A DNA stretch of 50,015 bases from a virus (taxonomy: Duplodnaviria; Caudoviricetes). The notes beneath the pieces are model-generated. The model did no database searches. It was not told where the DNA came from and was given only the letters and a program-made list of their open reading frames with translations. The position numbers and the translations under genes are program-made. Positions 4,701-39,768 of this stretch are shown one piece after another. Position 1 is the first letter of the stretch. Each line of letters begins with the position of its first letter. The stretch lies in the IMG/VR virus record IMGVR_UViG_3300028595_000002, positions 1 through 50,015 of that record; one strand, written 5' to 3'.

Positions 4701-5960
4701 ACTTCCCTGTGTGTGTTTTTTAGATATGGCGTCCGCTAAGTCTGTATCTGCCTTGATGGTTGCTAAATCTAAATGAGTCGTTGTATCTTCTAAATGTGTT
4801 TTTATCTCTAAGGCTGTTTTAGTATTACCCGCTCAATCATCTACGCTTTCTGCTTTATCTACGATGTTATTCGTATTAGTATCGTAAGTAGATTGTAGCA
4901 TATCTCCTGCCCCTCATCCTCAAGCATTGTCATCAACATATTTTTTAGTGGCTGGGTGATTATCTAGGGTTGGGGTGTATACGTCAGTATTATCTAATTC
5001 TAGTACATTTGATTTGTCTGATTTTAGATCCAATGCGTTTTGTAGGTCTGTTTGAGATGATAGCGTTCAAGTTATGCCTCCCCAAGTCCCTCAAGTTGTA
5101 CCTCAATCTTCCCCATCTATTTTTATTCTCTTTACCTTAACTGACCGATCATCACTTAAAGTAGTAGCTAATAATCTAACATTATTTGAATCTATATCTA
5201 CAGAGAACGCCAAATCGCTTGTGTCTCAAATGTCTGTAGTTAATTGTTCGTTGAATTCAACTGTATCTCATGTCCCGTCCCAAGCACTCATTATTGTACC
5301 TGTTCTTAAATTTGCCCCTTTCTTTACAACATAAAGCCAATGACAAGCCTCTACGTCAGTGTCAGCGAAAGTGTCAATTATTTCTGTTCAAGTATCTATA
5401 TCTAAGTTTTTTGCTCCTTCTAATCAAAATCATGTAATACTTACTCCTCCTCCCCCAGAACCTATCTCTGTTTCTGTTCATGTAGAGTCCTTTTGATAAA
5501 GCTTCGTAGTCCCTCAATCATCTTTAGCGTAAATTTTAATATTGTCAGCTTGGGGAGTATCAATTGTAGTTTGTTCGGTTAGTTGTATCTGTCCATCTAT
5601 AATCTTAACTCACTCTATCGCCACCCCTGAATCTGTAGTTAGCTCATTAATCGTATCTGTAGTAATCGTTTCTGTATACAATCTCCAATCAGTAGGATTT
5701 GTACTAGGCTGTGAATTTGTATTGATTGTTAGTGATAAGTAAATTTCTCAATTATAATTTACCATATCTCAAGCAGAGTAGGATTCTAAAGAATCCCAAG
5801 ATCACATTCTAGTTCAACTAACTCAAACTGCTGTTATATTTGCTATTTCATATACTCAACTAGCATTTACCTTTACGTATTTTCAAGCATCAGCCGTGGT
5901 TGGTTTAGGTGTGTCCCCCTCTCTAAGTTTTCATAGTAAAGGATCAAATTTGCTTCACAT
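1749..5960 (-). CDS. Tail fibre/adhesin B (1403 aa): N-terminal CBM5/12-like motif, two LamG/ConA-like domains
   Basis: ATG at 5960, TAA at 1749; joins track ORFs 3915-4169 and 2166-3821 in one frame; motifs WDSLESYSAGDMVNYNG and FNGYIDEFRIS; paralogue of fibre A. Confidence 0.85.
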
Positions 5961-10021: not shown

Positions 10022-12430
10022 CTAAAAGTATTTGAAGATAATCTTAGGTCTTTTTAATTCAAATAACATCCTCATAGCCATACAGTCACTAAAATCTGGG
10101 GATCTTCATAATCTCTCCTTAACTAACTCTTTCCCTTCTATAGCAAACTTTCAATCCTTGTCTAGGTCTTTTATTTTAATCTGTAATAGCTCTTGGGTTA
10201 GTTGCTCCTTAACAAATTCATCACAATTCACATGAACTATTCATAGTTTTATTTGCTCACATAACTTAAAATAACATTGAGATTTTAGATTGGCATAATT
10301 AGCCCTTTTTGCTAAGTCTTTAGTTGCTCTCCTCTCTTCTATAGCTCTAGCATTATTGATAAAACCCCTACATCCTCTAATTTGATCTATTACTCAACCT
10401 CATAATCAATCCTCATCAATTACTATATGGTTTCTTGGGATATTATTTCACATAGAAATACGTATTATTTGCTGTGCCAACTCTTGTAAATCTGTTTTCT
10501 TTTGATGAAAAACCTGTAAAACAGTTAATCATCTCCAAAGCATTATTACGGTTTTGTCATTACCCTTTCTGGCAACATCACAAGATAGATAAAACTTCTT
10601 ATCCTCATCTATAGTAGAGTCTTTCTTGAAAATACTTGAAACTGAATCTATATCCAATAACAATCAATCTTCATCTGAATATTCAAAATTACCGTATAAT
10701 AACCTCTGAACTGTTACGTGATCTCATTTCTTTAAATTATCAACGTATTCTTTCTTGATACTAGGATTATCGGTTACTAAAGCAGGTACAAACGCTTTAG
10801 TGGGTTCTAAATTGCCTTCTTTATACGGTTTGTAGTAGTCATAATAAATCCAATTCCTCGCTGGATTACAAGTAAATAACATTTTAGGTATAGTTTCCCA
10901 ACCTTCACCAGATAAAACCGAAAGTCTTCATCTCAAAACACTGATACATTTGCTGTTGATCTCTTGGGCTTCATCTAAGAATACGCCAGTAAGTCAATAA
11001 CTTCATAATCTGTCGAAGTTAGGATCAGATGGTAAATTCTGTAGGTCAGTTAAAAATATTCGTGATCAATTTTGAAATTCTATTACTCAATCCAAAGCGT
11101 TATATTTGTAAAAAGGCTTCTTTAACCCTAACATCTTTATGATATCAAATAAAGTTATCATAGTTGTTAGTTTTAACCTCTTTAGCTCACATCTTCAAAT
11201 TAACCATTGCGAACCGTTGTACTCTAAGCACTTACTAACTACCCAAAAACATCAGATATAGCTATTATGAGTTACCATGAAATCGTTAGTTATATACAAT
11301 CAATCATCTTTAGAAACTGTAATACATTGTGCTTCTTGTTTTCATATATATTTAATGTTTTTTATAACTAAACCCATTCTACTTCTACCACCTTGATATT
11401 TTGTTCATCTATCTTTTTTTCTTGTTAAATTAAACAATAAAGATCTATCAGACAATGTAACAATAACTTCGTAATATACTCACCGTCTTTTCTTTCATTT
11501 ATAAGTACAAAATTTATTAACAGTAATTAAATTAGCCCTACCTCCTATACTTCTTATTAAATATTGAAAATCTAGTGCTAATTGTTTACTTTTTGCAGTT
11601 AAAGAACATCTTCAGTTTGTTCAAACAGTTCAATCTGTATCCATTAACCCTTTTATACATTGACTCCTAGTATATAGGTCTCCTTCCATTATTTGTCTAG
11701 GTATTTTTTTCTTTTCACATCTAACGCCTTTCATTCATAACTCATTCAAAATATCATTCATTTTCGATCATAAATATCACTTAGCTTTTCTATAACTGCT
11801 AAGGATTCTATAAGCATATTTACGTCAATTGTACTTTGATATAGAAATTCATTTTGGTAACAAACGTTTAAAGCTATCTATTAATTCTTGGTCTTCAGTT
11901 GTAAAAATAACTGCTCCAGTAGTAAGTCATCAATCTCATAATAAAGCACCTACTAAATAAGGATGTAATTTTGTATAAGGTTTTCAAAAATCTAATGCCT
12001 CACATGTTGGAATCTTTATTTTTATTCATCTATCAAAAAAATCCTTTATCTCCCTAAGACTTCTATTAGCTAATGTTTTTTGTCATCTTTTAGGTTTCCA
12101 ACTTAACCATAAATGATCCAAACAACACCTAACCTTAATTCAAGTATCAAACTCAACTTCGTAAATATCTTTTTTTCATTGAGGATGTATTGCTATTACT
12201 TTTGTTGTTCATCAACTTGGACTAATTAAAGATTGTCATATCTTAATCTCTCACATCCTGATCCATCAGTCGGGCGTTAGTATTTTACTATATAAAGGTT
12301 GTGCTTTTCAACCTCTAGCCCCACCTCAATACAATACCTCATTCGTTTTATTGTCATTTAGTAATTGCAAAGCTTGGTACTGCTTAGCAAAAGGCTTAAA
12401 TTCAACGATATGGTTTTCTTGTGATTTCAT
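10022..12430 (-). CDS. terL: Terminase large subunit with intein (802 aa precursor)
   Basis: Walker A LYGGGARGGK/S split by the intein, Walker B VFLDEA, motif III TCNP, nuclease SVDVARKGND and SPDFSD. Confidence 0.92.
11264..12304 (-). mobile_element. Class-3-type intein with LAGLIDADG homing endonuclease (347 aa) in the TerL P-loop
   Basis: Begins AQPLYSKILTPDGW, block B CCLDHLW, LAGLIDADG motifs LVGALLGDG and IKGLMDTDG, block F QCITV, ends DFMVTHN followed by Ser. Confidence 0.9.
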
Positions 12431-12896: not shown

Positions 12897-12923
12897 TTTT
12901 GTGTTAAAAATAATAATATCTGT

Positions 12924-12952
12924 AATATATATAAGTTTAACTAAAATGTCAA
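12924..12952 (-). promoter_or_regulatory. Sigma70-like promoter for the packaging/structural operon
   Basis: TTGACA-17 bp-TATATT on the minus strand, about 30 bp upstream of the terS ATG. Confidence 0.6.
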
Positions 12953-12962
12953 TTTACTTATA

Positions 12963-13934: not shown

Positions 13935-13962
13935 GGTTCACATAATATATGATATGTTAACC
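13935..13962 (+). other. dif-like (Xer recombination) site
   Basis: GGTTCACATAA-TATATG-ATATGTTAACC fits the 11-6-11 layout of E. coli dif GGTGCGCATAA-TGTATA-TTATGTTAAAT. Confidence 0.6.
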
Positions 13963-14049
13963 AACGACTAACAAGCCACTTAGAGCGAGGGGGAAAGTTT
14001 GACTATTGCTTATTTTATAGTGGTTGCTCCTCCGTTTTAGATTAGCACG

Positions 14050-14076
14050 TTGGCACCTCCGGTGATAAGGTGCTAA
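14050..14076. promoter_or_regulatory. CIRCE-like operator (second, inverted copy at 13711-13737)
   Basis: TTGGCACCT-N9-AGGTGCTAA versus CIRCE TTAGCACTC-N9-GAGTGCTAA. Confidence 0.4.
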
Positions 14077-14142
14077 TTTGTTGACTTTATGTATTTTATG
14101 GGATAATTTAGAATAAAAAAAGTTTTTATATATGTTTGAGAC

Positions 14143-14336
14143 ATCCTAAATTGTATCCTAAAGTATCCTAAATTGTATCCTAAAGTATCCTAAATTGTAT
14201 CCTAAAACCTATCCTAAAATATCCTAAAGTATCCTAAATTGTATTCTAAAGTATCCTAAGTTAACCTAAATCCTAACCTAATACATCCTAACTTCTACCC
14301 TAAAGAACCTTAATCAATATCCTAAAGTATCCTAAT
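14143..14336 (+). repeat. Tandem array of ATCCTAAA-core units (alternating 12 and 10 bp)
   Basis: ATCCTAAATTGT/ATCCTAAAGT units, about 11 regular copies followed by degenerate ones. Confidence 0.9.
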
Positions 14337-14497
14337 GTCTATTTTATAATACCTAATAGTTAATATAAGAAGTGTTGAAAGTATATTTATAGTTTATACC
14401 TTATTATGTAAAAAGTATTCTAAATTAATACTATTAAGTACTTAATAGTATTATATATAATATATTATAGTTTCCTCTCCTTCCTTCTTTATGGCTG

Positions 14498-14547
14498 ACA
14501 CGGACGTTTAGTAAGTGCTAATACACGGACGTTTACTAAGTACTAAT
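14498..14547 (+). repeat. 25-bp tandem duplication
   Basis: ACACGGACGTTTAGTAAGTGCTAAT / ACACGGACGTTTACTAAGTACTAAT (2 mismatches). Confidence 0.85.
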
Positions 14548-14672
14548 ACAAGGAAGATTCGCTCTCTGTTCCTAATCTATGACCTTTCGGAGTTTTCCTA
14601 AACCTCAAAACTTCCTTTGTTTATGCTATACTTAAGTAAAACTAAAAAAACTAAAAAAAGTATAATAAAAAC

Positions 14673-14701
14673 TTGTATTTACTAAAAAGATATATTATAA
14701 T
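14673..14701 (+). promoter_or_regulatory. Early sigma70-like promoter P1
   Basis: TTGTAT-17 bp-TATAAT with upstream A-tracts; near-identical to P2. Confidence 0.75.
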
Positions 14702-14751
14702 ACTTATGTATTCAAAATAAGAATACAAAATTTATATTTTAAAATTATATT

Positions 14752-15120
14752 ATGGAAGCTACAAAAATAAAAGAAGAAATTTCAAACTTAACTGTTAGAA
14801 AAAAGGAGACCCTAATGGGGCTTTTAGGATCGTATAAGATCCTAAAAAGACAAACGGGAGGGAGTAATTTTATTGTTCCCTCATTTAATGTTTGGTTATC
14901 CCAAATATATGGGATAGACCAAATAAAAACCAACACATTTAAAGGTTGGTTTAATGAAGGATATAAAGTTAAAAAAGGCGAAAAAGGGTATATGTTTTTC
15001 ACTAGACCCATAAAAGGGAAGGTGAAAGACAAAAAAGACGAAGAATACAGGTTCTTCAAAACTTGTTTTGTCTTCACGGAAAAACAAGTTGAAAAAAACT
15101 TAAAAGAAAAGAAGTCGTAA
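14752..15120 (+). CDS. ArdC-like N-terminal ssDNA-binding (anti-restriction-type) protein (122 aa)
   Basis: TFKGW...GYKVKKGEKG...FVFTEKQVE matches the ArdC N-terminal signature. Confidence 0.7.
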   Translation: MEATKIKEEISNLTVRKKETLMGLLGSYKILKRQTGGSNFIVPSFNVWLSQIYGIDQIKTNTFKGWFNEGYKVKKGEKGYMFFTRPIKGKVKDKKDEEYRFFKTCFVFTEKQVEKNLKEKKS

Positions 15121-15206
15121 GGCTTCTTTTTTTTTGTCTTAAATAAGCTATCTTTTAAGTAAAACTAAATAAAACTAAAAAAAACTAAAAAAACTATAAA
15201 AAAAAC

Positions 15207-15235
15207 TTGCATTTACTAAAAAGATAGATTATAAT
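15207..15235 (+). promoter_or_regulatory. Early sigma70-like promoter P2
   Basis: TTGCAT-17 bp-TATAAT; spacer ttactaaaaagatagat is almost identical to that of P1. Confidence 0.75.
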
Positions 15236-15240
15236 TGTTT

Positions 15241-15455
15241 TAGAAAGTTAGGAATTGAGAAATTCCTGACAAACTCCCAGAGGAGGCAAACCTCTCGGAG
15301 GTGTTCCTTAAAATCTTGCCGAAACACTAAGAAGGACTTAGTCTAGCGGCAAACCAGTTACTCTCGGCGGAGGGTAACACCATCCCAACAAATCAGTTTG
15401 GGGGTCTCCTTACAAGGAGGCTCTCAAATATTATTTTAGGGGAAACCCCTTTTAT
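15241..15455 (+). ncRNA. Putative structured non-coding RNA (about six hairpins)
   Basis: GC-richer than surroundings; starts just after P2; stems at 15247-15270, 15274-15300, 15316-15352, 15357-15378, 15397-15428; ends AGGGGAAACCCCT-TTT. Confidence 0.65.
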
Positions 15456-15473
15456 ATTTTTAAATTATTTATT

Positions 15474-15722
15474 ATGAATACAGAAATAAAAAAAAACCTT
15501 TTAGAGGTAAAGAAAACAAAGATTAATAATATGAAATTCTATGGGTGCAACCTGCACTACGCAAAAACCCTTAGAGTTAAATGGATTACAGAAGACATTA
15601 GACTAATAAAACTTATAAATGACTTGTTAGGGTGAAGGAGAAAAACCAACGCTTCAAAAAAGACAATAGAGGAACTAAAAATACAAATAAAAATACAATA
15701 CCGCATTAATAGAGTTTTTTAA
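15474..15722 (+). CDS. Early hypothetical protein (82 aa)
   Basis: ATG to TAA with one TGA; starts MNTEIKKNL. Confidence 0.6.
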
Positions 15723-15751
15723 ACTTAATTTTATTATTTAATAATTATATT

Positions 15752-15904
15752 ATGAATACAGAAATAAAAAACCTTGAGTTCCTAATTGATAGTAAACTAT
15801 CAGAGTTAGAAACTTTAAAGGATTTTGACGAGACTTTTAATCTTGTCAAAGAAATAAAGAGCTTGTCTGATACCTTAGACGCTCTTTATCGTAAGTTTGC
15901 TTAA
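15752..15904 (+). CDS. Early hypothetical protein (50 aa)
   Basis: Starts MNTEIKNL like the previous ORF; shares the leader motif. Confidence 0.6.
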   Translation: MNTEIKNLEFLIDSKLSELETLKDFDETFNLVKEIKSLSDTLDALYRKFA

Positions 15905-15925
15905 TTTATTATTTAATTATTTATT

Positions 15926-16582
15926 ATGAAAAATTTTAATGATATGACAGAAGACGAACAAATAAAGGAAGTTAAAAAGAATTGGTGCATCATGGAATTT
16001 ATAGCGAACCCAAGCAAAAAGGTAATTTTAGAGGCTGTAAAAAGGCACTGATACTCCATACAATGGATTCATAATCCTAGTGAAGAAGTGAAATTAGAAG
16101 CTGTAAAAAAAAATTGAGAAGCCATACAATGGATTCATAATCCTAGTGAAGAAGTGAAATTAATGGCTGTTAAAAAAAATTGATATTCCATACAATGGAT
16201 ACATAATCCTAGTGAAGAAGTGAAATTAGAAGCTGTTAAACAAATTTGATATTCCATACAATGGATTCATAATCCTAGTGAAGAAGTGAAATTAGAAGCT
16301 GTAAAACAAAATTGATGGGCTATACAACAGATACATAATCCTAGTGAAGAGTTAATGTTGGAAGCTGTAAAACAAACTTGATATTCCATACAATGGATTC
16401 ATAATCCTAGTGAAGAAGTGAAATTAATGGCTGTTAAACAAAATTGAGAAGCTATACAATATATACATAATCCTAGTGAAGAGTTAATGTTAGAGGCTGT
16501 TAAACAAAATTGAGAAGCTATACAACGGATTCATAACCCAACACAAAAAGTAAAAGATATGGCAAATTGAAAAAGTACTTAA
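15926..16582 (+). CDS. DUF4116-like 22-aa tandem repeat protein (218 aa)
   Basis: 66-bp repeats encoding AVKQNGxxIQWIHNPSEEVKLE; the conserved Gly is TGA. Confidence 0.8.
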
Positions 16583-16603
16583 TTTATTATTTAAAACTAC
16601 ATT

Positions 16604-16756
16604 ATGAATTATGAATTACAAACGATCGCTGTACAGATAGAAAAAGAAATTGTACAAAAGATCAAAGAAATAAATAGAGAAAAAGGAAGAACTATTACAT
16701 GACTTATAAGGACTTTATTAATACGTGAAATAGAGGAAAACAAAAAGGATGCTTAA
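16604..16756 (+). CDS. Ribbon-helix-helix (CopG/Arc-like) DNA-binding protein (50 aa)
   Basis: TIAVQIEKEIVQKIKE...GRTITGLIRTLL beta-alpha-alpha pattern. Confidence 0.6.
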
Positions 16757-16778
16757 TTTATTATTTAACCAAAAACTT

Positions 16779-16922
16779 ATGAACTATGAAGAAATAGATG
16801 AGGTTACCTTAGACTACAAGGAAAGATACCTATTAGCTTTAGAGGATGAGGAATTCTTAAAAGAAATAGAAGACCAAAGGGAGTTGGCTTTTATATTAGA
16901 CCCTAATACTGAAATATGGTAG
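16779..16922 (+). CDS. Small acidic protein (47 aa)
   Basis: MNYEEIDEVTLDYKERY...; D/E-rich; preceded by the shared leader motif. Confidence 0.55.
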   Translation: MNYEEIDEVTLDYKERYLLALEDEEFLKEIEDQRELAFILDPNTEIW

Positions 16923-17113
16923 AAGCTAATATTTATATATTTTCTTTCTTAGATATTGTAATTTGTTTATCATTTTACAATATCTTAATAGCTTTGCTAT
17001 TGTCAAAGTTTGGAGGTTTTAAGGCTTTCAATATATCTTTATTCTTGTTGATATATATGCTGATATTCCTTTTTCTTATCCATTGATTTTACGTTTTATT
17101 ATTAATGTATTAG
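16916..17113 (+). CDS. Small membrane protein (65 aa)
   Basis: Two hydrophobic stretches; overlaps the upstream stop. Confidence 0.5.
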
Positions 17114-17332
17114 ATGAAACTATTAAAACTAATAAGCTATATTGATTATGGCTTACGGATCTTGTATTTACTTGATATTGTTGATGTTTTGCAATATACA
17201 GATCCATTTGTAATAAAACTAGATTTAGTTGTTTATTGGAGCAATTGCGTATTCATTGGCGTATGAATAGGTGCTTTATTATGACAACTCCTAGTTTATT
17301 TAGAATTTAAAATAAAAACAAAAATATGATAA
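17114..17332 (+). CDS. Small membrane protein (72 aa)
   Basis: Hydrophobic; ATG directly follows the previous TAG. Confidence 0.5.
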
Positions 17333-17535
17333 ATACAGAAAGAGAGTTAATAATAACAATTTGAGATTTATTGATGTTTCAATTTGTAATATTATGAATA
17401 AATACATTGTTATTGTGTTTGGTAATGCATATTTACTTTGAAATAGATTTTCCCAACAGTATTGCATTATGATTTTTTGTATATGTGTTTATTACAAATT
17501 TATTATTCTACACTATACCTTATTTTAACTTATAA
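17326..17535 (+). CDS. Small membrane protein (69 aa)
   Basis: Two hydrophobic segments. Confidence 0.5.
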
Positions 17536-17544
17536 AAACAAAAT

Positions 17545-17694
17545 ATGAAAACAAAAAGAGGTACTAAAAGCAGGGTAAAAACATGCCCTTATTGTGGAGG
17601 TAAAACACTTAGGGCAGGTGTTTGCTCCTTATGTTATTATAATAACAAACTAAAAGGAAATTTAACTGATCCTTTATTTAAGGATATATTATAA
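17545..17694 (+). CDS. Small basic zinc-ribbon protein (49 aa)
   Basis: CPYC-x9-CSLC. Confidence 0.55.
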   Translation: MKTKRGTKSRVKTCPYCGGKTLRAGVCSLCYYNNKLKGNLTDPLFKDIL

Positions 17695-17709
17695 TTTAAT
17701 AAAAACAAA

Positions 17710-17976
17710 ATGAGAACTAAAACTTTAAACAATCCTAAAAAGGATTTTCTAAATCAAAAAGAATTGGAATACTTATTTTATATGAGTTGGAGAAGTATTT
17801 GAATCCATCTACAAAAATATATTCCAAACACCATAAAAAGTCATCAAAGGCACTATAAGAAAAAAGACCTATATGAATTTATAAAGAAATACAAAGATAA
17901 ACCTAGAATTAAAGCTCTGAACTGGGAGATGTTCAATAAAGAATTTGCAGATTTCCCAAAAATAGAAAAGAGCTAG
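17710..17976 (+). CDS. Excisionase/MerR-like HTH protein (88 aa)
   Basis: FLNQKELEYLF...RHYKKKDLYEFI pattern. Confidence 0.5.
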
Positions 17977-18188
17977 TACACCAACATACGTACTAGCCCT
18001 CTATAAGCATATGAACCAGATCACTGGCTCGACCAAACGTCTTGGTAAAGACAGTTCATTAAATTTGTTAATCTTTTCCTATGCGGTAATCAATTAACAA
18101 AAACAATATATCTAAGTAAGTTAAAGTAACAAGTGAATTAAATGTTTTTACCTTGCACGTTTGCTCGTTTATTTATTAATAACTAATT

Positions 18189-18287
18189 ATGAACACACTT
18201 AAAGTATTAAAAATCTTCTTACTTTGAATTTTTGGTTATTTCTTAGTTCTAACCCTAGCGTACATTATTACAGAGTTTATTTTTTAG
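18189..18287 (+). CDS. Tiny single-TM peptide (32 aa)
   Basis: MNTLKVLKIFLLGIFGYFLVLTLAYIITEFIF with A/T-rich leader. Confidence 0.4.
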
Positions 18288-18363
18288 TGGTTGCTCGTAG
18301 GAGGTTTTTTTAAGATCCTAACCGTAAAAAGTCAATGAAAAGTTTTGAATTTTTAGGAATTAA

Positions 18364-18470
18364 TGTTATAATAGAGTTGCAAACAATTTAAAGATAAGTT
18401 AAAATATTAGAGTCTTTTGACTAGGTATTGTTTGCAAAACTTATCGCCTAGTCAGAGGACTTTTTTATTT
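18364..18470 (+). promoter_or_regulatory. Extended -10 promoter plus attenuator-like leader of the replication operon
   Basis: TGTTATAAT at 18364; 15-bp stem 18411-18425/18447-18461 followed by a U-tract; loop complementary to 18377-18387 and 18393-18400. Confidence 0.6.
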
Positions 18471-18486
18471 GTTAATTTTGATTATT

Positions 18487-18945
18487 ATGGAAAATGAAAG
18501 GATGTTAAAGTATTACGAAAAGAAAAATTGCTTTAATGAAGTAATATCCAAAAAATATTATTTATTTAACAGGAGTTGGATTAATCCAACATTTCAAGAG
18601 TTAACAGGATTAGAGCATGTACTAAAAGAAGGTGCTAAAGTGCTACCTTGTATATATTGCTATTTAAAAAGCCTAGACATAGCAATAGAAACGAATAATG
18701 TTCCTTTTATTGAAGTGCCAAAAATATATTTGGAAAGTATGTTGGTGTATTATTATCATTTCGAAAAAAACAAGGCAAGAGTAACTTTAAAAAAATGATT
18801 AAAAATCCTAGTAGAAACAGGGTTAATAAAAACAAAAAGAATTTGGTTTGGTAAAAATATAAAAATTAAGATTTATAATGGTAAACTAAGGTCTTATATT
18901 GATAAATATCGGAAAGATGAAGAACCTATTAAATTTGATTTTTAA
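18487..18945 (+). CDS. Winged-HTH protein upstream of the initiator (152 aa)
   Basis: Track ORF extended through TGA; TLKKGLKILVETGLIKTKR wHTH wing pattern. Confidence 0.6.
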
Positions 18946-18981: not shown

Positions 18982-20175
18982 ATGAAATCTGATAACAAAA
19001 TAAAAGGTTACTGTGTAATACCAGTTGTAATACTAAATGATGAAAACCTAAAAGCAAAAGAACGCCTTCTTTATGGCAATATTTATAGTCTATGCCGTTC
19101 TTGTTGATATTGTCGGGCAACTAATAAATATTTAGCAGATCTAATAAATGACTATTCTTGATGAAAAAAAACACACAAAGATACAGTTTCTAAATATATA
19201 GCTAGTTTACAGAAAGCTTGATATATCAAGTGTGAGTATGTATACGAATGAAAGAAGATTAAAGGTAGAAAGATCTATTTAATGGGTGTAACAGACCTTG
19301 CAACATGAATATATTATGAACTATCAGAGGAAGAAGTAATGACCAGACTAACTACTAGGTCTACAGAGCTAGGGGGGTATAGCTCTACAGATCATGAGGG
19401 TATAGCTCTACAGATCAAAGGTAACAAGATAAACAATAACAAAATAAATAATAAAAAAGAAAAAGAGGTCTCTCTTTCAAAAGAAGAAGAAAAAACACTT
19501 GCTAATATTAATTCTAACCCTAGCAAAAACTCTAAAGAATCTAAGGAATCCCCCATCTCTCTGGATGTAGCAAACGTAGAAGAAGCTCAACAGTCTGTAC
19601 AGACTACAAGTAACCCCTTACGTGTGAACAAAGAAAAGAAAAATTGCGTTAAAAGAAAAGAAATAAAGTCATTGCTACCAGTAGGCACTACAGCAGAAAA
19701 CATAAGCGATGAACAATTTCAAGAGCTTTGTAGAAAATTTAGGACTCTATCAGAATGAGATAGAAAAATTTTGCAAGAAAAACTAAAAAGTGTTAGCATT
19801 AAATTAATAGAATACTGGAACGATAAATCAGATGAGTTTATACCTTGAACCAAAATAAAATATTGAATATGAAAAGTAAGATTATCCGCACCTTGAACAC
19901 AAAAAAAAGTATATGATGGATTATATACCTTGTTAATAAAAGAGAAATTTACGCTTAAAGACCTTAAACATTGTTTAGTTGTTTATTTGTCTGAATTAGA
20001 GAAATCCCCAGATAGGTTTCGTATTTGATGACTTGTAGCATTTATAACACAAAAAAACTGAATGAAATTAAAAGTCACAGAAAGCATAACAGATAAACCA
20101 AAGCAAAAATACTCACAATTCAAACAAGACACAAAAAACGACCCATATTGACGTGCAATCAGAATAAAAGGATAA
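18982..20175 (+). CDS. Replication initiator (HTH_36 / lambda-O-like, 397 aa)
   Basis: VIPVVILNDENLKAKERLLYG..GYC(CGG)ATNKYLA; internal iterons. Confidence 0.8.
19375..19417 (+). repeat. Iteron-like direct repeats inside the initiator (putative origin)
   Basis: GGGTATAGCTCTACAGATCA twice, 23-bp period, followed by an A-rich tract. Confidence 0.6.
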
Positions 20176-20245: not shown

Positions 20246-20500
20246 ATGAAAAATACATATGAAGATTTTACAAAATGTATAGAATGTAAGAAGAAATATT
20301 TATTTTGAGAAGTTGATAAATGTAAGAAATGTGGAAGTACTAATTTTGTAGAATTTATTTACATCTGAAAATCCAGATACAATATTTATATCAGATCTGT
20401 TAAGTTAGATAAGGGAGTTTTTATTACAAAACTAACAGCAGAGCAATTATTCCCTAATAAAACCGACTATGTTCAAGGAACAACTAAAAAAAACTGCTAG
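20246..20500 (+). CDS. Zinc-ribbon protein (84 aa)
   Basis: CIEC...CKKCGS. Confidence 0.6.
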
Positions 20501-21542
20501 TTTACTAGAGAACTTACAGCAAACTAGCAGTATCTGAAAAGATATAAACTCATGAAAAAACCTAGAGGTTAATAACCTCAAAAGTATTATTAAAGATCCA
20601 TTAGAGCAAATCTTAAATAATACTCACAAGGAAGATATCTATTTTCTAGCGTGAGTCAAGCCTAATTTAAACAAAAGAGCTTGTGATAATGATATTTTAT
20701 TTAAAAACTATTTTTTAATAGATATCGATATTAGAAATAATATGCAAAGTTTAGGCTTAGAATGTACAAATAATGAGATTATAGAAGAAGGGAAGGATAT
20801 TTGAAAATATTTACAAAAACTCGAACAATTCAAAGATCGGCAAGCAATAGTGTTTTCTTGAAATGGTTTACATATCTATTATGTATGAAAACCACAACGG
20901 TTAGATATAGAGATAAGATCAGTTGAATATAAGCTAGGAGTACAGCAAATATACGAAGAGATAGAAAGCTATCTTTGAAACAACCCAGCTTATAAGATAG
21001 ATTATGCTTGCTCTAATGTATGAAGAATCGCCAGACTACCTTATACTGTAAATAGTAAGAATTTAGCAGTAACTAAAATTATAGAATTTAGAGAAAATAA
21101 GAAGTCTACACTATTAGAAAAACTAGTAGCAAAATCAGAGGTTCAATTATTTCGTCAGTTCAATAAAGATGTAAATAGGAGAAAAGAGGCATGGTTAGAA
21201 TATATAGGTAAGAATAAGAAGCTAGATATTACTAATAGAGATAAAGATAATTTTAAATATATAAATGAAAATATAGAAGCTTGGAGAGTAGCAGAAAAAA
21301 TACTCCCAAATTTTAAGTTTGACTGAAAAAAGAACTTCTTAAATGAGAAGCGTTGATATACTTGATACTTTTACTCTGAAAACCTTAATGCTATTATAAA
21401 TTGATGATCTAGGCATTTTGCTTGGTGATCTGATAGTAGTTGATGGAGTCCAACAAATATAATAAGAAATCAATTTGACTATTCTTGGTGAGAGGTATTG
21501 AATTGGTTTGATAAGGAATTCAAAAATTTAAAACTAAAATAA
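20469..21542 (+). CDS. Archaeo-eukaryotic primase (AEP) family primase-polymerase (357 aa)
   Basis: IDIDIR (DxD), VFSGNGLHIYY, IDYACSNVGRIARLPYTVN. Confidence 0.8.
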
Positions 21543-24475: not shown

Positions 24476-27400
24476 ATGGAAAATAAAATAAAATCTAAAA
24501 AACAGATACAAAACGAAAGAGACCTCTTAACAATTGGGGAGGTTTCGGAAACTACATGAGCTACCACTAAACAAATTATAAAGTGGTGTAGAGAAGGTAA
24601 AATTACTAAAAAGTTCGTTAGTCAGAAGGTTATGTTGTTACCCTCGGCGATACAAGAAGTTTGTCAACTAATAACAGAGGATTTAAATTGAATAGATAAT
24701 GAGACCAATTTTTCCTCCTATATGACATACGAAGAAACACAAAAGTTTCTAGATATATCTATTGATGAAGTTTTACTTCTAATAAATCATAAGTTTTTAA
24801 AATATCATGAAACATGATTAATATGAAAAGAGAGTGTATTAAGATTATCAGGCAAAATATATCGTAGAAGCCAATATTATGATTATTTTAATATCTCCGA
24901 AGCATCCAGACATCTTACATTAACAAAGCCAGAAATTAATGTATTATTAAAAGATAATATTATAAACAAAACAATTAAATGATATTTCTTACGAAAACAG
25001 GACGTAGTATATGAGGTATTAATATATCCAGAGGATATTGTGAAGCTAGAAACAGCAATTAAATATATAAAAAAAATTAAAGATTTTGATAAATTAACAC
25101 CTAAAGAACGATTAGATAGTATTAAAAGCTTTTACAAACAATCTTATAATAAATGAAAAGAATTACTAGAAGATTGAGAGGAGACAATAACCCAAGCGGA
25201 GGCAGCGGAACTTTGTCGAGTTTCAACGACTTTAATTTCGAGAGCGATTAAAGATAAAAAAATAAAAACAAAAAAGGTAGGTAAATGTGTAAAACCCTTA
25301 AGGAGTTCTGTTTTAGAATTTAAAAAAACTTTAAAATTTAAAAAAGATTACCCTGGTTATTTAACTCTAACAGAGGCTAGTAAAGAATTAGGTTTTAGTG
25401 ACAATTCTATAAATAGTCGAATAAAATCATGAGAAATAAAAGGAGCTATAAAAAATGCAATTCGTGATACTTGAGGTTCTTGTACCCTAATCCCCCTATC
25501 AGAAGTAGATAAACTTAAAAAGACCTTAAAATTTCAAAAAGATTACCCTGATTATTTAACTATAACAGAGGCTAGTAAAGAATTAGGTTGTAGTGACAGG
25601 GCTATAAAAACTAGAATAAAATCATGAGAAATAAAAGGAGCTATAAAAAATGTAATTTTTGATACTTGGGGTTCTTGTACCCTAATCCCAAAATCAGAAG
25701 TAGATAAGCTAAAAAAAACCTTAAAATTTCAAAAGGACTATACTAATTATTTAACTTTAAAAGAAGTTAGCAAAGAATTAGGTTGTAGTGGGTGAACTAT
25801 AAATAGGCGAATAAAATCATGAGAAATAAAAGGAGCTATAAAAAATGTAATTCGTGATACTTGAGGTTCTTGTGTTCTAATCCCCCTATCAGAAGTAGAT
25901 AAACTTAAAAAGACCTTAAAATTTCAAAAAGATTACCCTGATTATTTAACTCAAATAGAGGTTGGTGAAGAATTAGGTTGTAGTGGCTGGACTATTGGTA
26001 ATAGAATAAAATCATGAGAAATAAAAGGAGCTATAAAAAATGTAATTTTTGATACTTGAGGTTCTTGTACCCTAATCCCCAAATCAGAAGTAGAGAACCT
26101 TAAAAAACAATGGCAAAAAAATAAAACAGACCACACAAGAGACAATCAAGATAGTATTAAAAGCTTTTACAACCAATCTTATAATAAATGAAAGGGATTA
26201 CTAGAAGACACGGAAGTTACTTTGACACTGCAAGAAGCCGGGGATCTTTGTTGAGTTTCATGTACCTATATGTTTGAAGTAATTAAAAATAAAAAAATCA
26301 AAACAAAAAAGGTAGGTAGTTGTAGAAGACCCTTAAAAAGTTCTGTTTTAGAATTTAAAAAAACTTTAAAATTTCAAAAGGACTATACTAATTATTTAAC
26401 TTTAAAAGAAGTTAGTAAAGAATTAGGTTGTAGTATAGATGCTATTTCTGAGAGAATAAAATCATGAGAAATAAAAGGAGTTATAAAAAATGTCATTTCT
26501 AATAATTGAAAGTCTTGCACACTAATTCCCAAATCAGAAGTAGAAAAACTTAGAAAGACCGTAAAAACTCAAAAGGACTATACTAATTATTTAATTACAA
26601 AAGAAGTTAGTAAAGAAATAGGTTGTGGTACAACGTATATTTATAGTAGAATAAAATCATGAGAAATAAAAGGAGTTATACAAAATGTCATTTCTAATAA
26701 TTGAAAGTCTTGCACACTAATTCCCAAATCAGAAGTAGAAAAACTTAGAAAGACCGTAAAAATTCAAAAGGACTATACTAATTATTTAACTTTAAAAGAA
26801 GTTAGTAAAGAAATAGGTTGTGGTATAACGTATATTTATAGTAGAATAAAATCATGAGAAATAAAAGGAGTTATACAAAATGTCATTTCTAATTCTTGAG
26901 GTTCTTGTACCCTAATCCCCCCATTAGAAATAGAGAAGTTAAAAAAACAATGGCAAAAAAGCAAACAAAAACCTATAGAAGACAATCAAAACACTGTCAA
27001 ACCATTATTAATTGACAATGAGGAACCTAAAAAAGAAGAAGAAGAAATCAGAATACCGAAAGAAGCAACAGAAAACCAAAATAAAATACCAATTAACCAA
27101 GTAGATATGGATAAAGAAAGTAAAGAAGAACTAGAAAGTAATATAAAGTTTTTCTTCAAAGAGATCGAAGAGAAGTACCAAAATAACATATTTATACCTA
27201 ATAGTTTAGAATGAATATTTAATTTACGGAACAGTAGGCTTAAAGGTATGGGAGAGATAGACAATATAATAGACTTAGCAAATGAAAAACAAATAGAAGA
27301 AACTAGACAAGTTATTAGACCTTTTACAGACAAAGCTTTGTCTACTTGAATCACTAAATACCTTAAATGGATTAAAAATATAAAGAAGAAAGGTAGGAGT

Positions 27401-28792: not shown

Positions 28793-28793
28793 T

Positions 28794-29324
28794 ATGAAAA
28801 CAATTTTGATGTTGATTTGAATACTGATAGCTGTATTGATAATATCATTATTCCCTTTACAGGATAGCCAATGATCTTATAGAGAGCCTCATGATATACA
28901 AAGGGCTTTTATAATAAGAGAGACACAAGATCGGTTGGAAGTGTCTAATATGCTTACTATTTTGAATATGGAATGTGGACGTGAAGATTGATTTTGTATG
29001 TCTAAAACTAAAGATTGTTGACCTTTCCAAATTAATGTTGTCCATAAAGACTTATATAAAAGATGTCTAGTTAAAATAAAGAAATGAAAGAAAATAGAGC
29101 TTTTTAAGGAGCAATTAAAATTTGCCCTAAATTGGTATAGAAACTTAAAAAAGAAATACCCTAAAAAAAACACGAAAGAATTAGCTAAATTATTTTTTAA
29201 TAGATATAACGGTAGCTCTCGCTATGCAAAAAAAGCAATAAAGCTAAGAGAGATACACAAAAAGAACTTTAAATATCTTTATTACAATAACCAAAAACAA
29301 AAATGAATGATTTCGAAATGATAA
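28794..29324 (+). CDS. Signal-anchored lytic transglycosylase (SLT-like, 176 aa)
   Basis: N-terminal hydrophobic segment; TILNMEC (putative catalytic Glu), DCGPFQIN, RYNGSSRYAKK. Confidence 0.65.
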
Positions 29325-29769: not shown

Positions 29770-30332
29770 GTGATAGAACCATAAAAAGCCTGATAATCAA
29801 TAAAGAAATTTGATTATCTTCCCCAAAATTTGATATAGATTTTAAAACACAAATCTGACCGTGTAGCTTAGATTTAAGACTAATGGATATTATAAAAATA
29901 TACAAGGTAGATAACTATGTAATAGATACTAGAGAAAAGGGAGACTATACGACGAAAACTGCCTATATAGAAAATAAGGGATTTATATTAAAGCCTTGAA
30001 GGTTTATATTGGCTTCTACAATAGAAAAAATACGAATACCTGACTTTTTATGTGCTAAGTGTGAGGGAAGATCTTCTTTATGAAGACTAGGGGTTCAAAT
30101 TCATGCAACTGCTTGATTTATAGATGCTTGATTTAAATGAAATATTACTTTAGAGATTAGCAATATTTGATGTAGACCAGTTAAGATATTTGCTTGAATG
30201 AGAATTTGCCAAATAGTATTTTCTTTATTAGATAAGCCATCAGAAGTTCCTTATGGGGATAGGGAGGGAAGTAAATACCAAAACCAAACTTTACCAACTG
30301 CTTCAAAGCTATATTTAGACAAAGATTTATAG
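29760..30332 (+). CDS. dcd: dCTP deaminase (190 aa)
   Basis: MILSD, GPCSLDLRL, CEGRSSLGRLG, AGFIDAGFKGNITLEI, GMRICQI, SKYQNQ. Confidence 0.93.
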
Positions 30333-30638: not shown

Positions 30639-31448
30639 ATGAACACAAATACAAATAAATACCCTATAGAACATTTAAGCCCTAGTTCTTTTAGATTGTT
30701 TTTAAATAATAGATTCGAGTTCTATAAAGCTTATATAAAAGGCGTGAAAAACTTTAAAACCTCTGAAGCTATGTTTACTTGAACTGTTTATCATAGTATA
30801 TTAGAGATGTTTTATAACCAAGAAAAAAGGGATAGTGCTTTTTTTGATATGGAAGAAGAACAAATTTTGTCTATAGCAAACGCAATAGAAGAAGAAAGAG
30901 AAAACAATATAGATAAAAAAGATGAAAAACGGATAGATAGGGTTGTTGCTAGTGTAAAAAAACTATTAACTTTTTATCAATCAGAGCTTCCAGACTATAA
31001 AGAGATATTAGGTATAGAATTGCTATTAAAAAATACCCCCAAGGGTATAACTATACCTTTTAAGGGTTTCGTGGATCTAGTAGTTAAGGAATGAGATGAA
31101 ATAATTTTAGTAGATCATAAAACAGTATCTAGATTTTCAAATAAAATCTCACCTTGATATATGATACAGGCTAATATGTACTATTTACTATACGTAACAG
31201 AATACAAACAAGCACCTAAATATATGTATTTCGATGAAATAAAGAAGTCTAAAAACAGAGACGGATCTCCTCAATTGAGAACTGTAAAATATAAATATAA
31301 TCAAAAAGATATGGTCTGATTTGCTAGGTTATTAGTATGAACCCTAAGGCAATTAGAGGTCTTTGGAGATAATCAAGATTTTTATTTACCTAACCCTTTT
31401 GATATGTTAAATGGAGAGCAATCGTTTCTTGAATATATAGAAATATAA
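30639..31448 (+). CDS. PD-(D/E)XK RecB-like exonuclease (269 aa)
   Basis: HLSPSS, GTVYHSILE, KGFVDLV, LVDHKT, IQANMY. Confidence 0.85.
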
Positions 31449-31977: not shown

Positions 31978-32571
31978 TTATTTTTCTAACTTAGTCCCTT
32001 GTTTATTTAATAATTTAACCAATCTTCCCATCATTATAGCAACTTCTTTTCTTGAAATTGGTTCATCTGCTCTTTCTCAATTCCGTAATCCTAGATCAAA
32101 CGCCAATTTATCACTTCATTTTTTTACCATCTCTTTTTTATTAAGATATATTTTAAAGTCCTCTACATTAAAGTTCTTTCAAGGACAACTCTTATAACTA
32201 GCAAATTTATTATGTCATTCTATTATTAATTTTCAAAACTGCTTTTGTAACTCTAAACAAATCCCTTTTAAGGACTGTAATTGCTCTTGTGAAGGTTCTT
32301 GTATATCTAGGTTACCACAAAGACAAATTCAAACTGATTCAGTATTGATCCTCCGATTACTAGCATGATAACCTATTTCATTTAGGCTTCTTGTATGTAG
32401 TATTTTTCAGTTTCTTCATATTATATAATGGTAAGCACAGTAGTTTCCCAAAACATTAGCTTTTTCATGTAGTCGTTTTCGATGAGATACATTACAAGAT
32501 TTTAATAACAGATCTGCGTTATCTTGAACGACTGCGGCGTGATGGATAACTACGTATTTAATGCTTCTCAT
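31978..32571 (-). CDS. Endolysin: N-acetylmuramoyl-L-alanine amidase (Amidase_2) with SLH-like C-terminus (197 aa)
   Basis: YVVIHHA, AYHYIIGRNG, GYHA, SVGICLCGN, EGHNKF, KSCPG. Confidence 0.88.
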
Positions 32572-33078: not shown

Positions 33079-33433
33079 AATTCATAAAATTTTTTAAATT
33101 TATTTTTATTCTTTTCATAATCATATAGATTCAACAAATTATTAAATATCATTCCATTGTATCTTGTATTAACCGTCCTTTGTCTATAGGTCATACTATA
33201 TTGGACATATTATCTTTAATCCGAAAGTACTCTAAACCCACATACAAACTAGACGTAAACAAAAACCCTACTAATAAAAATGAACAAAATTCTAATAATA
33301 TTATAAAATCATGCAAAAATTCATCTTTATTTTTTATATTAGAAACAGTCCTTAAAGACATTCTGGTATAAATTAATATTACAATGCCATAAAATAAAAC
33401 TACAGTATGTATATAACCAGGAAAAAACTTCAT
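33071..33433 (-). CDS. Multi-TM membrane protein in the lysis cassette (120 aa)
   Basis: Track ORF extended through TGA to TAG. Confidence 0.55.
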
Positions 33434-35026: not shown

Positions 35027-36844
35027 TTAAGATTGATACCGCTCTAACTTATGATAACCCGTATTTTCCCATTTTATATAAAAATTAGTTTGTCCTCCAA
35101 TAGAGATGAAACCATACTTTATTATCTCTAAATCAATTGTTCTATCAAGATTAGGTGTTGCATATACTCTACTAATTAATAGATCTGTATTGTAAGTGCG
35201 AATAACATCAAAATCTAAATAAAAATTATATAAATTACCATTTAATCAATTTACTTTTACTAGTTGCGTATTTGTTGCAGAGGATACCGTACTAGTTGCT
35301 GTACAATCATTAGCTTTATCTCTATGCCGTTCATGTATTGTTCAATCTGTCCAATCAGAACTTATTGATAATGTTACACTCCTTGTTCAATAAATACTAC
35401 CATACAATCTTACCCTAGTTCTTGAATGTTCTGCATAGCCTATAGGAATGGCACTACTAACGTAATCAGTCCCATAAGTGGCAGCTATACTACCACTATT
35501 AGTCCACATATTGACTCAAGAATAATCTATCTCAATATCACTTGCATTATTAGTAACCGTAATATTACTTCAAGCTTTGATAGTTTTTAATTCTAAATCA
35601 GTTCAAGTTTTTTGTTTGAACACATCTCAATCTCAAGTTCATACATTACTAGCAGTATTTACTTCTCAACTAGTCAATCAAGTGGTTGCTATCTCAATAT
35701 CACTTGCATTATTAGTAACCGTAATATTACTTCAAGCCTTGATAGTTTTATATTCAAAATCAATTCAAGCCTTTTGCTTAAAAACTTCTCAATCGCCAGT
35801 ACCTACATTTGAACCAGTATTAGCTTCTCATACAGAACTAGCAGCTGATATTTCAATATCACTTGCATTATTAGTAACCGTAATATTAGTTCAAGCTTTG
35901 ATGGTTTTTAATTCAAGATCAATTCAAGTTTTTTGCTTAAAAACCTCTCAATCTCAAGTTCATACATTACTAGCAGTATTAACTTCTCAACTACCACCTC
36001 AAGCTGAAATCCTATCATCTATTTCATCGGCACTTAATAAGTCAGTAGTTCATGTCCCAGAGTCATTCAAAGCTATTCAAGAGTCTTGTATATCTCATCA
36101 AGCATCTCTAGTTACAAAATTTCAGTTAGTTCATCATGTTATTATATTCGCTTTATCTGCAATTGTAGCAACTAGATTTTTATCACTAGTAGTATAGTCA
36201 TTAGTGGTTTTTACGTAAGTTGTACCATCGTCCATATTATCCATATCAAAAGCAGATACATTTTTACTCGTAGGATCATAGACTGATTTATCCATTTTCC
36301 CCCCTATTGTAGCAACTAAATTTTTATCACTAGTAGTATAATCGTTAGTAGTTTTTACATAAGTAGATCAATTTTCCATATTATCCATATCATAAACGTC
36401 TACCTGTTTATTTGCAGTATCGTAAGTAGTTTTAGTCATTTTTCATGAAATTGTCGCTACACTGCTTTTTTCTGAGTCTGTATAATTATTTTCTGTTTTT
36501 ACGTAAGTAGATCAATTTGTCATATTATCCATATCAAAAGCAGATACATTTTTACTGGTAGGATCATAGACTGATTTATCCATTTTGTCAGATATAGAAG
36601 CTATGGCATTTTTATCAGATGTAGTATAGTCGTTAGTAGTTTTTACGTAAGTTGTACCATCGTCCATATTATCCATATTATAAACATCTACCTCTTTAGA
36701 AGATGGATCATAGGTAGATTGCTCCATTTTATCATTATTTAGATTATCGAGATTTGTATTTATTTTTTGTCATCCCTCATATACTGTATCTCAACTTGCA
36801 GTATTAGGTCAACTTCCAAAATCTAAAGGTGTAATTGTAGTCAT
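35027..36844 (-). CDS. Repeat-rich tail fibre/baseplate protein 2 (605 aa)
   Basis: N-terminus SGDTVYEGGQKINTNL; four 48-aa KMDKSVYDP repeats (144-bp period); three ~53-aa NTASNVGTG repeats. Confidence 0.8.
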
Positions 36845-36866: not shown

Positions 36867-38408
36867 TTATTGCCACCGAGTATATTTATGATATCAATCA
36901 CTTATCCAATGAATATAAAACTCACTAGATACAGAAGCTCAAAAATTTGCATAATGTAATATATAAGCGAATGTATTTTTAGCAACACCATGTACAAAAC
37001 TAACAAAGGCATGGTTAGCATCTATTTTCATCACTTCTATCTCTATTAATACGTCCCATAAACTTCATCATTGGGTAAATAATTTAGTATATGTTTGAGA
37101 AGCACCATAAGTTATATCCCTATCAGATAATCTTTCTAGTTTATAATCGTGGTCTGTGCTGTCAGTTCCTCAAGAAGCAAAAGAAAGTCTTAGTTCTGTT
37201 ATACCATCTCAATAAATTGAAACCCTAGTAGGTACATAACTAGCTAGAGGTATAGCAGATGAAGTATAACTGGTAGAGTGATAAGTTCTTGAAACAGATC
37301 CAGTAGAACTCCAACGAGAAGCGGAACTGCCTAGTCTTTGATCTATTCAATATAAATGAGATGTTAATTGGTCGGTTCAATCTACCTCTGTCGGAGTAGA
37401 AGCTGGTGTATAATTTGTTGGAGACCAAGTTATATTTAATTTATCTCAATCTATTTCATCAGTTCATCAATCTATATGAGAGCTACTATGAGTAGTAGGA
37501 GTTCTAGAATCTGATAATCTGGAATCATTTCATTGACAGATAGTTCAGGAACTAGTTCAGAAGTTTTTATTAAAAGCTGTATTAGGGGTAACTGCTTGTA
37601 TAGTTTTAGAATTAACTCAATCAAATACTGCTATATCGTTATTGGCGTTTGTAGTAGGTCAAAGAATATCTCATGCTCAAGTAGTAGAAATTTCAATATC
37701 ACTTGCATTATTAGTGATAGTAATATTACTTCAAGCTTTTATTGTTTTTAGTTCAAGATCAATTCAAGTTTTTTGTTTAAAAACTTCTCAATCTCAAGTT
37801 CATATATTACTAGCTGTATTGCTTTCTCATACAGATCAAGTCGCAGATATTTCAATATCACTTGCATTATTAGTGATAGTAATATTACTTCAAGCTTTAA
37901 TTGTTTTTAGTTCAAGATCCACTCAAGTTTTTTGTTTAAAAACCTCTCAATCTCAAGTTCATACATTACTAGCTGTATTATCTTCTCAACCTGCACTAGC
38001 AGATATCCTCGAGTCTATTTCATTAGAACTTAATAATTGAATGTTTGAACTGCCTGAATCATTAATAGAGTATAAAGAGTCCTGAATATCTCCACCACTT
38101 CAAATAGATACCAAATTTCACGAAATACCACCACTTATTTTATTTGCCTTATTATCTATGGTATCCACTAGGTTTTTATCTGTATCAGTATAATTATTAG
38201 CTGTTTTTACATAACTAACTCAATTATCCATATTATCCATATTGAAACAGTCAACAGATTTATTTCATGGATCATATACTAACTTTTCCATTTTGTCATC
38301 ATTGATAGCTTCAAAGTTATCATTAATTTTTTGTCATCAATCTCTTAATGGATCTCAAGTATTGGTATCTGGTCAGGTTCAAAGGTCTAAGTATTTTATT
38401 GTACTCAT
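36867..38408 (-). CDS. Repeat-containing tail fibre/baseplate protein 1 (513 aa)
   Basis: N-terminus TGDPLRDGGQKINDNF (T4 gp9/gp10-like); paralogue of the next gene. Confidence 0.8.
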
Positions 38409-38415
38409 AGTTTAA

Positions 38416-39768
38416 TTAAAATTCTAATTTCTTAATTCTATCCAAAGCATCCGATATTATATTTTGTGTATCTACTCTTTTTACGACTGTTTCTGCTATC
38501 TCTATATCGTTTATAATTTTTTGTTGGTCTTCTATAGTAATTTTTTGCTTTAATACAAATGTTTCTGTTTCAGTATTTAGATAATCATTAACTTCTTCTA
38601 TTCTCAAAGCCACTTTATCTCAAATATCTATATTTTGTATATTAGGATCTGTATAGTCTAATTTTAGATTTATAGTTTTTTGTGGATTTTTATATATATC
38701 TATATAAGCATCTGTGTTCGCTTGTAATCAAGTGGTTCTAAATCTTTTACCTTCTTGTAATAATCAATATTCTAATTGAGAAGCTGTATCTTGTGATATA
38801 TCGGTATAGTAATCATCTTTTCAAAAAACATAATTAGTAATAGATCAAAAGTTATTATTAGATATATCGATAATATTATTACTTTCAGGAGCTTTTTGAT
38901 TATATACTAATTCAATATAATTAGTTCCGCTTGTTTTGTCAAGTCATAGTATTTCATCGGCAACTAAAACTCAATTATTATTAACTTTCCAATAATAAGA
39001 AATTCATCAAAACAACTCCTCAAAAACTCAATAAACCGAGTCTCAAGGTTCACTTTGTAAATCAGTGGTGTTTGCTCCTAAACTACCTATTTCTAAACTC
39101 CAAGATTCAAGAAAATCTCATAAAGAAGATGTTCAAGAATTGATGGTAGCTAATATATTATTAGCGATTGTTTCTATCGCAGTACTGGAATAATTAAGTG
39201 TGATTGTGGTTTTTCTCTTAAAATAAGCCTTATAGCAACGACCTATAATTCTTATTGCGTTCTGGTTAGGTATTAATTCGTGGATATATCAACTGAACAA
39301 TATAGTATCTTCTCATTCTTCTGTTTCAACTAATTCGATCCTCCTGTATTCCTTTAATCAAGAGTAATTCTCATAGTTTATAGAGCCAAAATTATAAGTT
39401 TCAGTAGAAGTAAAAGAACTAGTACTCCATCTAATAAAAGAATCTGGATCACTATATCAACTTAGATATCAGTTATAATAAGAATTGTCATTATTATAAT
39501 ATAGTGTATCATTATTGGCTAAAATTGTATTAGAATAGACACTAGAATTATCTAAGTAAATCTTAGTGCTATCAAATAAGGCACTTGCTCATCAACTCGC
39601 TGTTTCTTGCCGATTATCATTAACATATTTGCTATAAGGTATATCGACTGTTAAAACAGAGAAATTTACTAAATCCTTCTGTATTTCTGCAAAACTTATT
39701 TCGGAACTTTGAAATATACAAGAAGAATTAAAATGTCATCAATATACCTTTACTATAAATTCACTCAT
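38416..39768 (-). CDS. Tail tip/hub (Tal-like) protein (450 aa)
   Basis: Open with TGA=Gly; position after the Dit-like gene; TAATG coupling. Confidence 0.65.

Follow-up and report, generated by a model that had tools for sequence, protein, structure and literature searches.

Arginine codons read as tryptophan have been predicted for bacteria by Shulgina and Eddy (2021; PMC8629427) using Codetta. Both CGA and CGG were predicted to encode Trp in the Absconditabacteria (SR1), beside UGA encoding Gly, which agrees with what an earlier sequence-only reading of the DNA studied here had stated for that group. The same paper predicted CGG=Trp for a subset of the Gracilibacteria, and CGG=Trp together with CGA=Arg for Anaerococcus and uncultivated Bacilli (RFN20 in that paper, Onthovivens in PMC13092985, the text of which restates the CGG/CGA picture). 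It also predicted that AGG is read as Met in two phage assemblies, matching their Bacilli hosts. Reassignments of arginine codons so far lack experimental verification, as worded in PMC13695967. Phages using code 25 were described by Liu et al. (2023; PMC10746230) for TGA only, with 0 occurrences each of 'arginine' and 'CGG' in the text of the paper, and the available text of the KACI preprint (10.64898/2026.04.02.715157), which lists A20 of the tRNA among the identity elements for arginine, mentions no phage.

The window analysed here, the whole stretch of 50,015 nucleotides, holds a phage that can be set beside each of these systems. With the Absconditabacteria it shares UGA=Gly, CGG at conserved Trp positions, a low GC content and the rarity of CGG; it differs in that its CGA behaves as Arg, where theirs is given as Trp, and in being a phage without tRNA genes instead of a cell. 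The predicted Gracilibacteria subset, a UGA=Gly lineage with a change of CGG only, matches the phage best, although the published prediction concerns cells and the likeness is one of codon pattern. Anaerococcus and RFN20 (Onthovivens) likewise split the CGR pair, with CGG=Trp and CGA=Arg, but there only CGG is described as reassigned and CGA is presumably read by tRNA-Arg(ICG), whereas the phage belongs to a UGA=Gly lineage. The AGG=Met phages are comparable in having adopted a sense-codon reassignment of the host without a phage tRNA for it; codon, amino acid and host group are different, and their published description does not present them as stop-codon recoded. The code-25 phages of Absconditabacteria and Gracilibacteria have the same dense in-frame TGA and the UGA=Gly code of the host, but the text on them (PMC10746230) covers TGA alone. 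No description of CGG=Trp in a phage was found in the literature, subscription journals and supplements lying outside the scope of the search. A CGG=Trp code has thus already been predicted for cells, and the phage is apparently the first in which UGA=Gly is combined with a sense-codon change.

Genome of the phage and reading of TGA

IMGVR_UViG_3300028595_000002 is a complete phage record, of which the window is the whole IMG/VR entry. It is classed as having direct terminal repeats, and the start of the genome is repeated at its end over 52 bp. The G+C content is 0.307. Pfam and PHROGs assigned a large terminase split by a LAGLIDADG intein, a DnaB-like helicase, a primase-polymerase-like protein, a HTH_36-type replication initiator, a dCTP deaminase, a PD-(D/E)XK exonuclease, an Amidase_2 endolysin, a tape measure protein, Laminin_G_3 fibres and a DUF4116 repeat protein; most of the ORFs carrying CGG found no family in either collection. 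ARAGORN and Rfam detected no tRNA and no other known RNA family in the 50,015-bp window.

Codons were counted and tested in the 36 ORFs of at least 100 aa. The stretches 12897-15925 and 16583-18468, which hold short ORFs only (≤122 aa), were left out of the CGG and CGA totals. Long ORFs arise only with TGA as a sense codon, and 571 in-frame TGA codons occur across the 36 ORFs. Alignment to four or more distinct homologues was possible for 68 TGA codons, of which 47 fell in Gly-modal columns and none in Trp-modal columns. On this ground the code of the phage is UGA=Gly (NCBI table 25) and not UGA=Trp.

The codon totals were 113 for TGG, 282 for AGA, 110 for AGG, 27 for CGT, 7 for CGC, 19 for CGG and 16 for CGA. 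CGG is rare at this G+C content, with 1.39 per 1000 codons compared to 20.6 for AGA.

CGG codons and their alignment columns

The sequence-only reading had proposed a second recoding, with CGG read as Trp and CGA kept as Arg, and all the CGG and CGA codons that it quoted are present in the sequence with the contexts given. The 19 CGG codons are located as follows.

5145..5147, (-) strand: tail-fibre protein, ORF 1749-5960, aa272, SDD[CGG]SVKV
11483..11485, (-) strand: LAGLIDADG intein in the large terminase, ORF 10022-12430, aa316
16526..16528, (+) strand: last repeat of the DUF4116 protein, ORF 15926-16582, aa201
18910..18912, (+) strand: ORF 18469-18945, aa148, no homologue found
19114..19116, (+) strand: HTH_36-like replication initiator, ORF 18982-20175, aa45, GYC[CGG]ATN
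20838..20840, (+) strand: primase-polymerase-like protein, ORF 20469-21542, aa124
20898..20900, (+) strand: same protein, aa144, inserted or variable region where homologues have C, A, V, P, N and gaps, uninformative
27227..27229, (+) strand: ORF 24476-28072, aa918, site without a homologue in the search
28932..28934, (+) strand: ORF 28713-29324, aa74, homologue search empty
30930..30932, (+) strand: PD-(D/E)XK exonuclease, ORF 30639-31448, aa98, I in one distant homologue
32083..32085, (-) strand: C-terminal region of the amidase, aa163, GL[CGG]NGERAD
32353..32355, (-) strand: Amidase_2 endolysin, ORF 31978-32571, aa73, HASN[CGG]RIN
33173..33175, (-) strand: small membrane protein, ORF 33071-33433, aa87, homologue search empty
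33221..33223, (-) strand: same protein, aa71, homologue search empty
35039..35041, (-) strand: tail protein, ORF 35027-36844, aa602, four codons before the stop
35327..35329, (-) strand: same tail protein, aa506, TAT (Tyr) in the paralogue ORF 36867-38408, a weak site
36876..36878, (-) strand: tail protein paralogue, ORF 36867-38408, aa511
39610..39612, (-) strand: ORF 38416-39768, aa53, no match in the phage collection
46050..46052, (-) strand: major-tail-like protein, ORF 45483-46322, aa91, phage matches spanning aa101-240 only and missing the site

Because the collections hold no close relative of the phage, distant homologues and their alignment columns were used, with CGG masked as X in every homologue query. 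Homologues were fetched for the CGG-bearing proteins on purpose, and the control codons were taken from the same alignments; 1352 codons of the window were alignable to at least four distinct homologues. Queries with the portal and DnaB proteins in IMG/VR returned no close relative, and the amidase matched nothing more closely than at 42-49% identity in a set of 1.84 billion representatives. Word-index protein searches found one relative for the initiator, two for the primase-like protein and none for the tail C-terminus. In tblastn against GenBank phages, the primase-like protein, the exonuclease and ORF 38416-39768 had no match, and solved-structure alignments gave nothing useful for the first two. 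Five virus records with one or two genes in common were fetched whole; two of them (G004 and G005) are TGA-recoded but have too little in common with the phage to provide further sites. In all, 8 of the 19 CGG sites were informative, seven by alignment to at least four distinct homologues and 16526 by its sibling repeats, while nine sites had no homologue at all.

The fibre site 5145 had been read as a Trp position, and its column holds W in 14 and Y in 1 of 15 distinct contexts (34 loci, 33 of them from IMG/VR and one from an uncultured huge phage, which has W); judged from this column, it is a near-invariant Trp. The same assignment for the initiator site 19114 was borne out by 23 IMG/VR homologues (W15, Y5, F2, T1, R0). 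After deduplication to 20 contexts the column was W12, Y5, F2 and T1, that is, aromatic in 19 of 20, and the single database protein matching the initiator also has W. At 20838 in the primase-like protein, W was found in five of six homologues and P in the sixth. The codon at 16526, which had been aligned to TGG in sibling repeats of the DUF4116 protein, indeed faces TGG in five of seven siblings, the others having CAG and TAT.

An IMG/VR contig, IMGVR_UViG_3300002966_000052 (L149), also carries CGG at the initiator Trp column, in GYC[CGG]ASN at 11656-11687 on the (-) strand. This AT-rich phage contig (GC 0.32) has seven in-frame CGG in 13 kb and keeps TGA as a normal stop codon; its phage may infect a host with standard stops and read CGG as Trp.

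For the amidase, 149 representatives were aligned. The column of 32353 (column 73) is variable, yet W is its commonest residue (W40, L18, K12, Y12, R11 and others), as had been expected of a Trp site; in the alignment of amidases from the PDB this site lies inside a 2-residue insertion. The second amidase codon, 32083, had also been claimed as a Trp site, and here the claim failed: its column is mostly small or hydrophobic and variable (F17, S13, I12, with W6, R2 and 42 gaps among the rest), which makes it a weak site.

One site is contrary. In five phage intein homologues the column of 11483 holds K2, S1, Q1 and D1; judged from these, it is an Arg/Lys-like or variable site that fits Arg better than Trp. 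Matches to inteins of solved structure stop short of it. Recent acquisition of the intein from a genome with the standard code was ruled out, since it contains 26 TGA codons read as Gly and must therefore be long adapted to table 25. This intein, of the LAGLIDADG type (about aa 44-390 of the terminase ORF on the (-) strand), has an N-terminal splicing block like those of the gp41-1 and DnaB inteins. Counted by type, the informative CGG sites are mixed, with five Trp-type and one Lys/Arg-type.

Between the two tail protein paralogues, which are 44% identical, CGG 35039 is aligned to CGG 36876; no outside homologue was found for the C-terminus around 35039.

CGA codons

The CGA codons for which a comparison was made are listed below.

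11060..11062, (-) strand: large terminase, aa457, NGS[CGA]I
25418..25420, (+) strand: HTH_17 repeat, ORF 24476-28072, AGA in 5 sibling repeats
25808..25810, (+) strand: HTH_17 repeat, ORF 24476-28072, AGA in 5 sibling repeats
30033..30035, (+) strand: dCTP deaminase, aa92, EKI[CGA]IPD, variable column
32473..32481, (-) strand: two codons at 32479 and 32473, amidase aa31 and aa33, motif H-[CGA]-K-[CGA]-L-H

Over the 149 amidases, aa31 is a K85/R22 column and aa33 a R90/K30 column, which makes both of them Arg/Lys sites. The proposal that CGA sits at Arg-type positions held in part: it stood for 25418 and 25808, both facing AGA in their siblings, and did not for the dCTP deaminase codon 30033, where the column has T and E in solved structures and V and N in two viral loci. 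The homologues of the terminase at 11060 have E2, R1 and T1, polar or charged and not Trp, and for the codon at 28241 (K[CGA]DKNGQF) no homologues were found. Of the three alignable CGA codons, two occupy R/K-modal columns, and W-modal columns hold none of the three. Column log10 odds over background, summed in the manner of Codetta, were +2.53 for R and -3.58 for W. Given the K/R amidase columns, the AGA of the sibling repeats and these odds, CGA is Arg in the phage.

Amidase column 73 in other phages

Since the variability of column 73 bears on 32353, its composition was compared between homologues of different codes. TGA-recoded homologues were recognised by W at conserved Gly columns, as expected of a TGA=Gly source translated by the pipeline as table 4. 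Among 95 standard-code homologues the column was variable (W25, K11, L10, Y9, E9 being the commonest counts given), and R occurred in 10 of 41 TGA-recoded homologues vs 1 of 95 others (p = 2e-5). At a second Trp-rich column of the amidase, R was found in 0 of 21 recoded homologues, so the enrichment of R does not extend to all Trp columns.

A motif scan of IMG/VR and the JGI metagenomes for a codon of the Arg boxes at column 73 gave eight stretches from four distinct lineages, all TGA-recoded. Three of the four lineages have CGA there and one has AGG (L141/L143/L144), which shows that the position can also hold a genuine Arg. From these alignments, code-25 lineages appear to place codons of the reassigned type at column 73.

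CGA stands at this Trp-prone column in L138, L139/L140 and L142/L145, which are phage or metagenome lineages with a GC content of 0.24-0.27. The amidase ORFs of L138 and L139 contain no second CGA, the 10 other Arg codons all being AGA or AGG. By this codon usage, the CGA of the three lineages fits the CGA=Trp code of the Absconditabacteria and contrasts with the phage described here. This contrast suggests that the CGA/CGG pattern could tell apart phages of different host groups within code 25.

Two further IMG/VR records (G004 and G005, behind L032 and L030) are complete or near-complete TGA-recoded phages with a GC content of 0.25 and 0.33. The CGA and CGG codons of their amidases were uninformative on decoding. 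CGA is relatively frequent in both genomes, with 28 and 47 codons vs 75 and 80 of TGG.

Probable decoding of CGG

The CGG codons did not fall mostly in Arg columns, as they would if read in the ordinary way. W-modal columns hold 4 of the 7 alignable CGG codons (5145, 19114, 20838, 32353), 8 of 11 TGG codons, 0 of 60 canonical Arg codons (AGA, AGG, CGT, CGC), 0 of 3 CGA codons and 7 of 1334 of all other codons; the one contrary CGG site is that of the intein. By Fisher's test CGG differs from the canonical Arg codons (p = 4.6e-5) and is not distinguished from TGG (p = 0.63). The Codetta-like column analysis, in a run that predates the addition of the fibre site 5145, gave summed log10 odds for CGG of +5.82 for W, +1.62 for Y as the next residue and -3.1 for R. 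Together with the odds for CGA, this makes the doubly recoded phage of the sequence-only reading, with CGG=Trp and CGA=Arg, the best-scoring decoding. As far as alignment columns can tell, CGG=Trp in this phage is probably a real observation.

It is likely that a host of the UGA=Gly lineage reads CGG as Trp, while CGA, CGU, CGC, AGA and AGG stay Arg. Without tRNA genes of its own, the phage depends on host tRNA for decoding. Translation would take place in a member of GTDB class JAEDAM01 with its orders BD1-5 and Absconditabacterales, where CGG would presumably be read by a tRNA with anticodon CCG charged with Trp, and CGA by an Arg tRNA. CGG would then be a minor second Trp codon of the phage (19 CGG vs 113 TGG). 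A scan of genome contigs for the host gave matches to Actinomycetota only.

How such a host might manage the two codons is a more speculative matter. CPR bacteria are described as being without tRNA-Arg(ACG), with tRNA-UCG and tRNA-CCG serving CGA and CGG (PMC8629427). A change of CGG only would, for this reason, need a wobble-restricted tRNA-Arg(UCG) or leave CGG partly ambiguous. We consider it possible, though doubtful, that the host is a CPR lineage in which UGA=Gly and the CGR pair is divided between Trp (CGG) and Arg (CGA) with no inosine tRNA. This would call for a tRNA-Arg(UCG) restricted in its wobble, or for a cell that tolerates dual decoding of CGG; the one Lys/Arg-type CGG, that of the intein, would be a trace of such ambiguity. 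Should this be true, the phage would be the first virus shown with both a stop-codon and a sense-codon reassignment, and the code could be used as a marker of host range.

The intein site 11483 could indeed reflect ambiguity of CGG, although a single site is thin evidence. A reading in which CGG is decoded as both Trp and Arg, or was reassigned so recently that the incompletely adapted phage carries old Arg codons beside new Trp codons, is unlikely. It would account for the mixture of Trp-type and Lys/Arg-type sites, and a route is at hand: the tRNA-Arg(UCG) of the host, needed for a CGA that is clearly Arg in the phage, could wobble onto CGG and compete with tRNA-Trp(CCG), as a tRNA with U34 hardly separates CGA from CGG in the CPR use of tRNA-UCG and tRNA-CCG (PMC8629427). 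Its one site, however, lies in a variable surface loop, and frequent insertion of Arg would harm four near-invariant or dominant Trp columns.

That CGG is ordinary Arg, with the matches to Trp columns being tolerated W-to-R substitutions, is very improbable. Only one transition, T-to-C, separates TGG from CGG, the sites 11483 and amidase aa163 are unlike Trp sites, and 9 of the 19 codons have no homologue to judge them by; against this stand the absence of all 60 canonical Arg codons from the W-modal columns that hold four of seven CGG, the negative odds for R, the 14 of 15 Trp at the fibre site and the lack of any R among 23 residues at the initiator site, and T-to-C changes are disfavoured in an AT-rich genome. 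The full Absconditabacterales code, with CGA and CGG both Trp, has precedent in the published prediction for Absconditabacteria (PMC8629427) and in the CGA at column 73 of other TGA-recoded phage amidases, but hardly deserves credence for a phage whose own CGA codons occupy the two K/R amidase columns, face AGA in five sibling repeats, avoid W-modal columns and score for R and against W.

If CGG is Trp, translation with the standard code or table 25 puts Arg for Trp at 19 positions of this phage, among them near-invariant Trp residues in the fibre, initiator and primase-like proteins. A wrong protein would in that case go into homology searches, structure predictions and any expression in E. 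coli. The virus would then track both the stop-codon and the sense-codon changes of its host, a point of relevance to the view of code change as a protection of cells against phages. At defined sites in this phage, proteomics could put to the test a reassignment that is to date no more than a prediction.

Repeats and duplicated modules

Some proteins of the phage have an unusual composition. The protein encoded at 33503-35008 on the (-) strand has 501 aa and 82 TGA codons; the C-terminal half consists mostly of Gly runs, nearly all of them written as TGA. The repeat-bearing ORF 24476-28072 on the (+) strand (1198 aa) contains at least seven near-identical HTH_17 units with an IKSGEIKG motif and an uncharacterised C-terminal domain. 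A duplicated Laminin_G_3 module lies close to both ends of the genome, in the fibre-like ORFs 1749-5960 and 48256-49932. The two are 63% identical across the paralogous region and share the identical stretch GEYDVDWI[CGA]GANMVDDV at 3120 and 49615 on the (-) strand.
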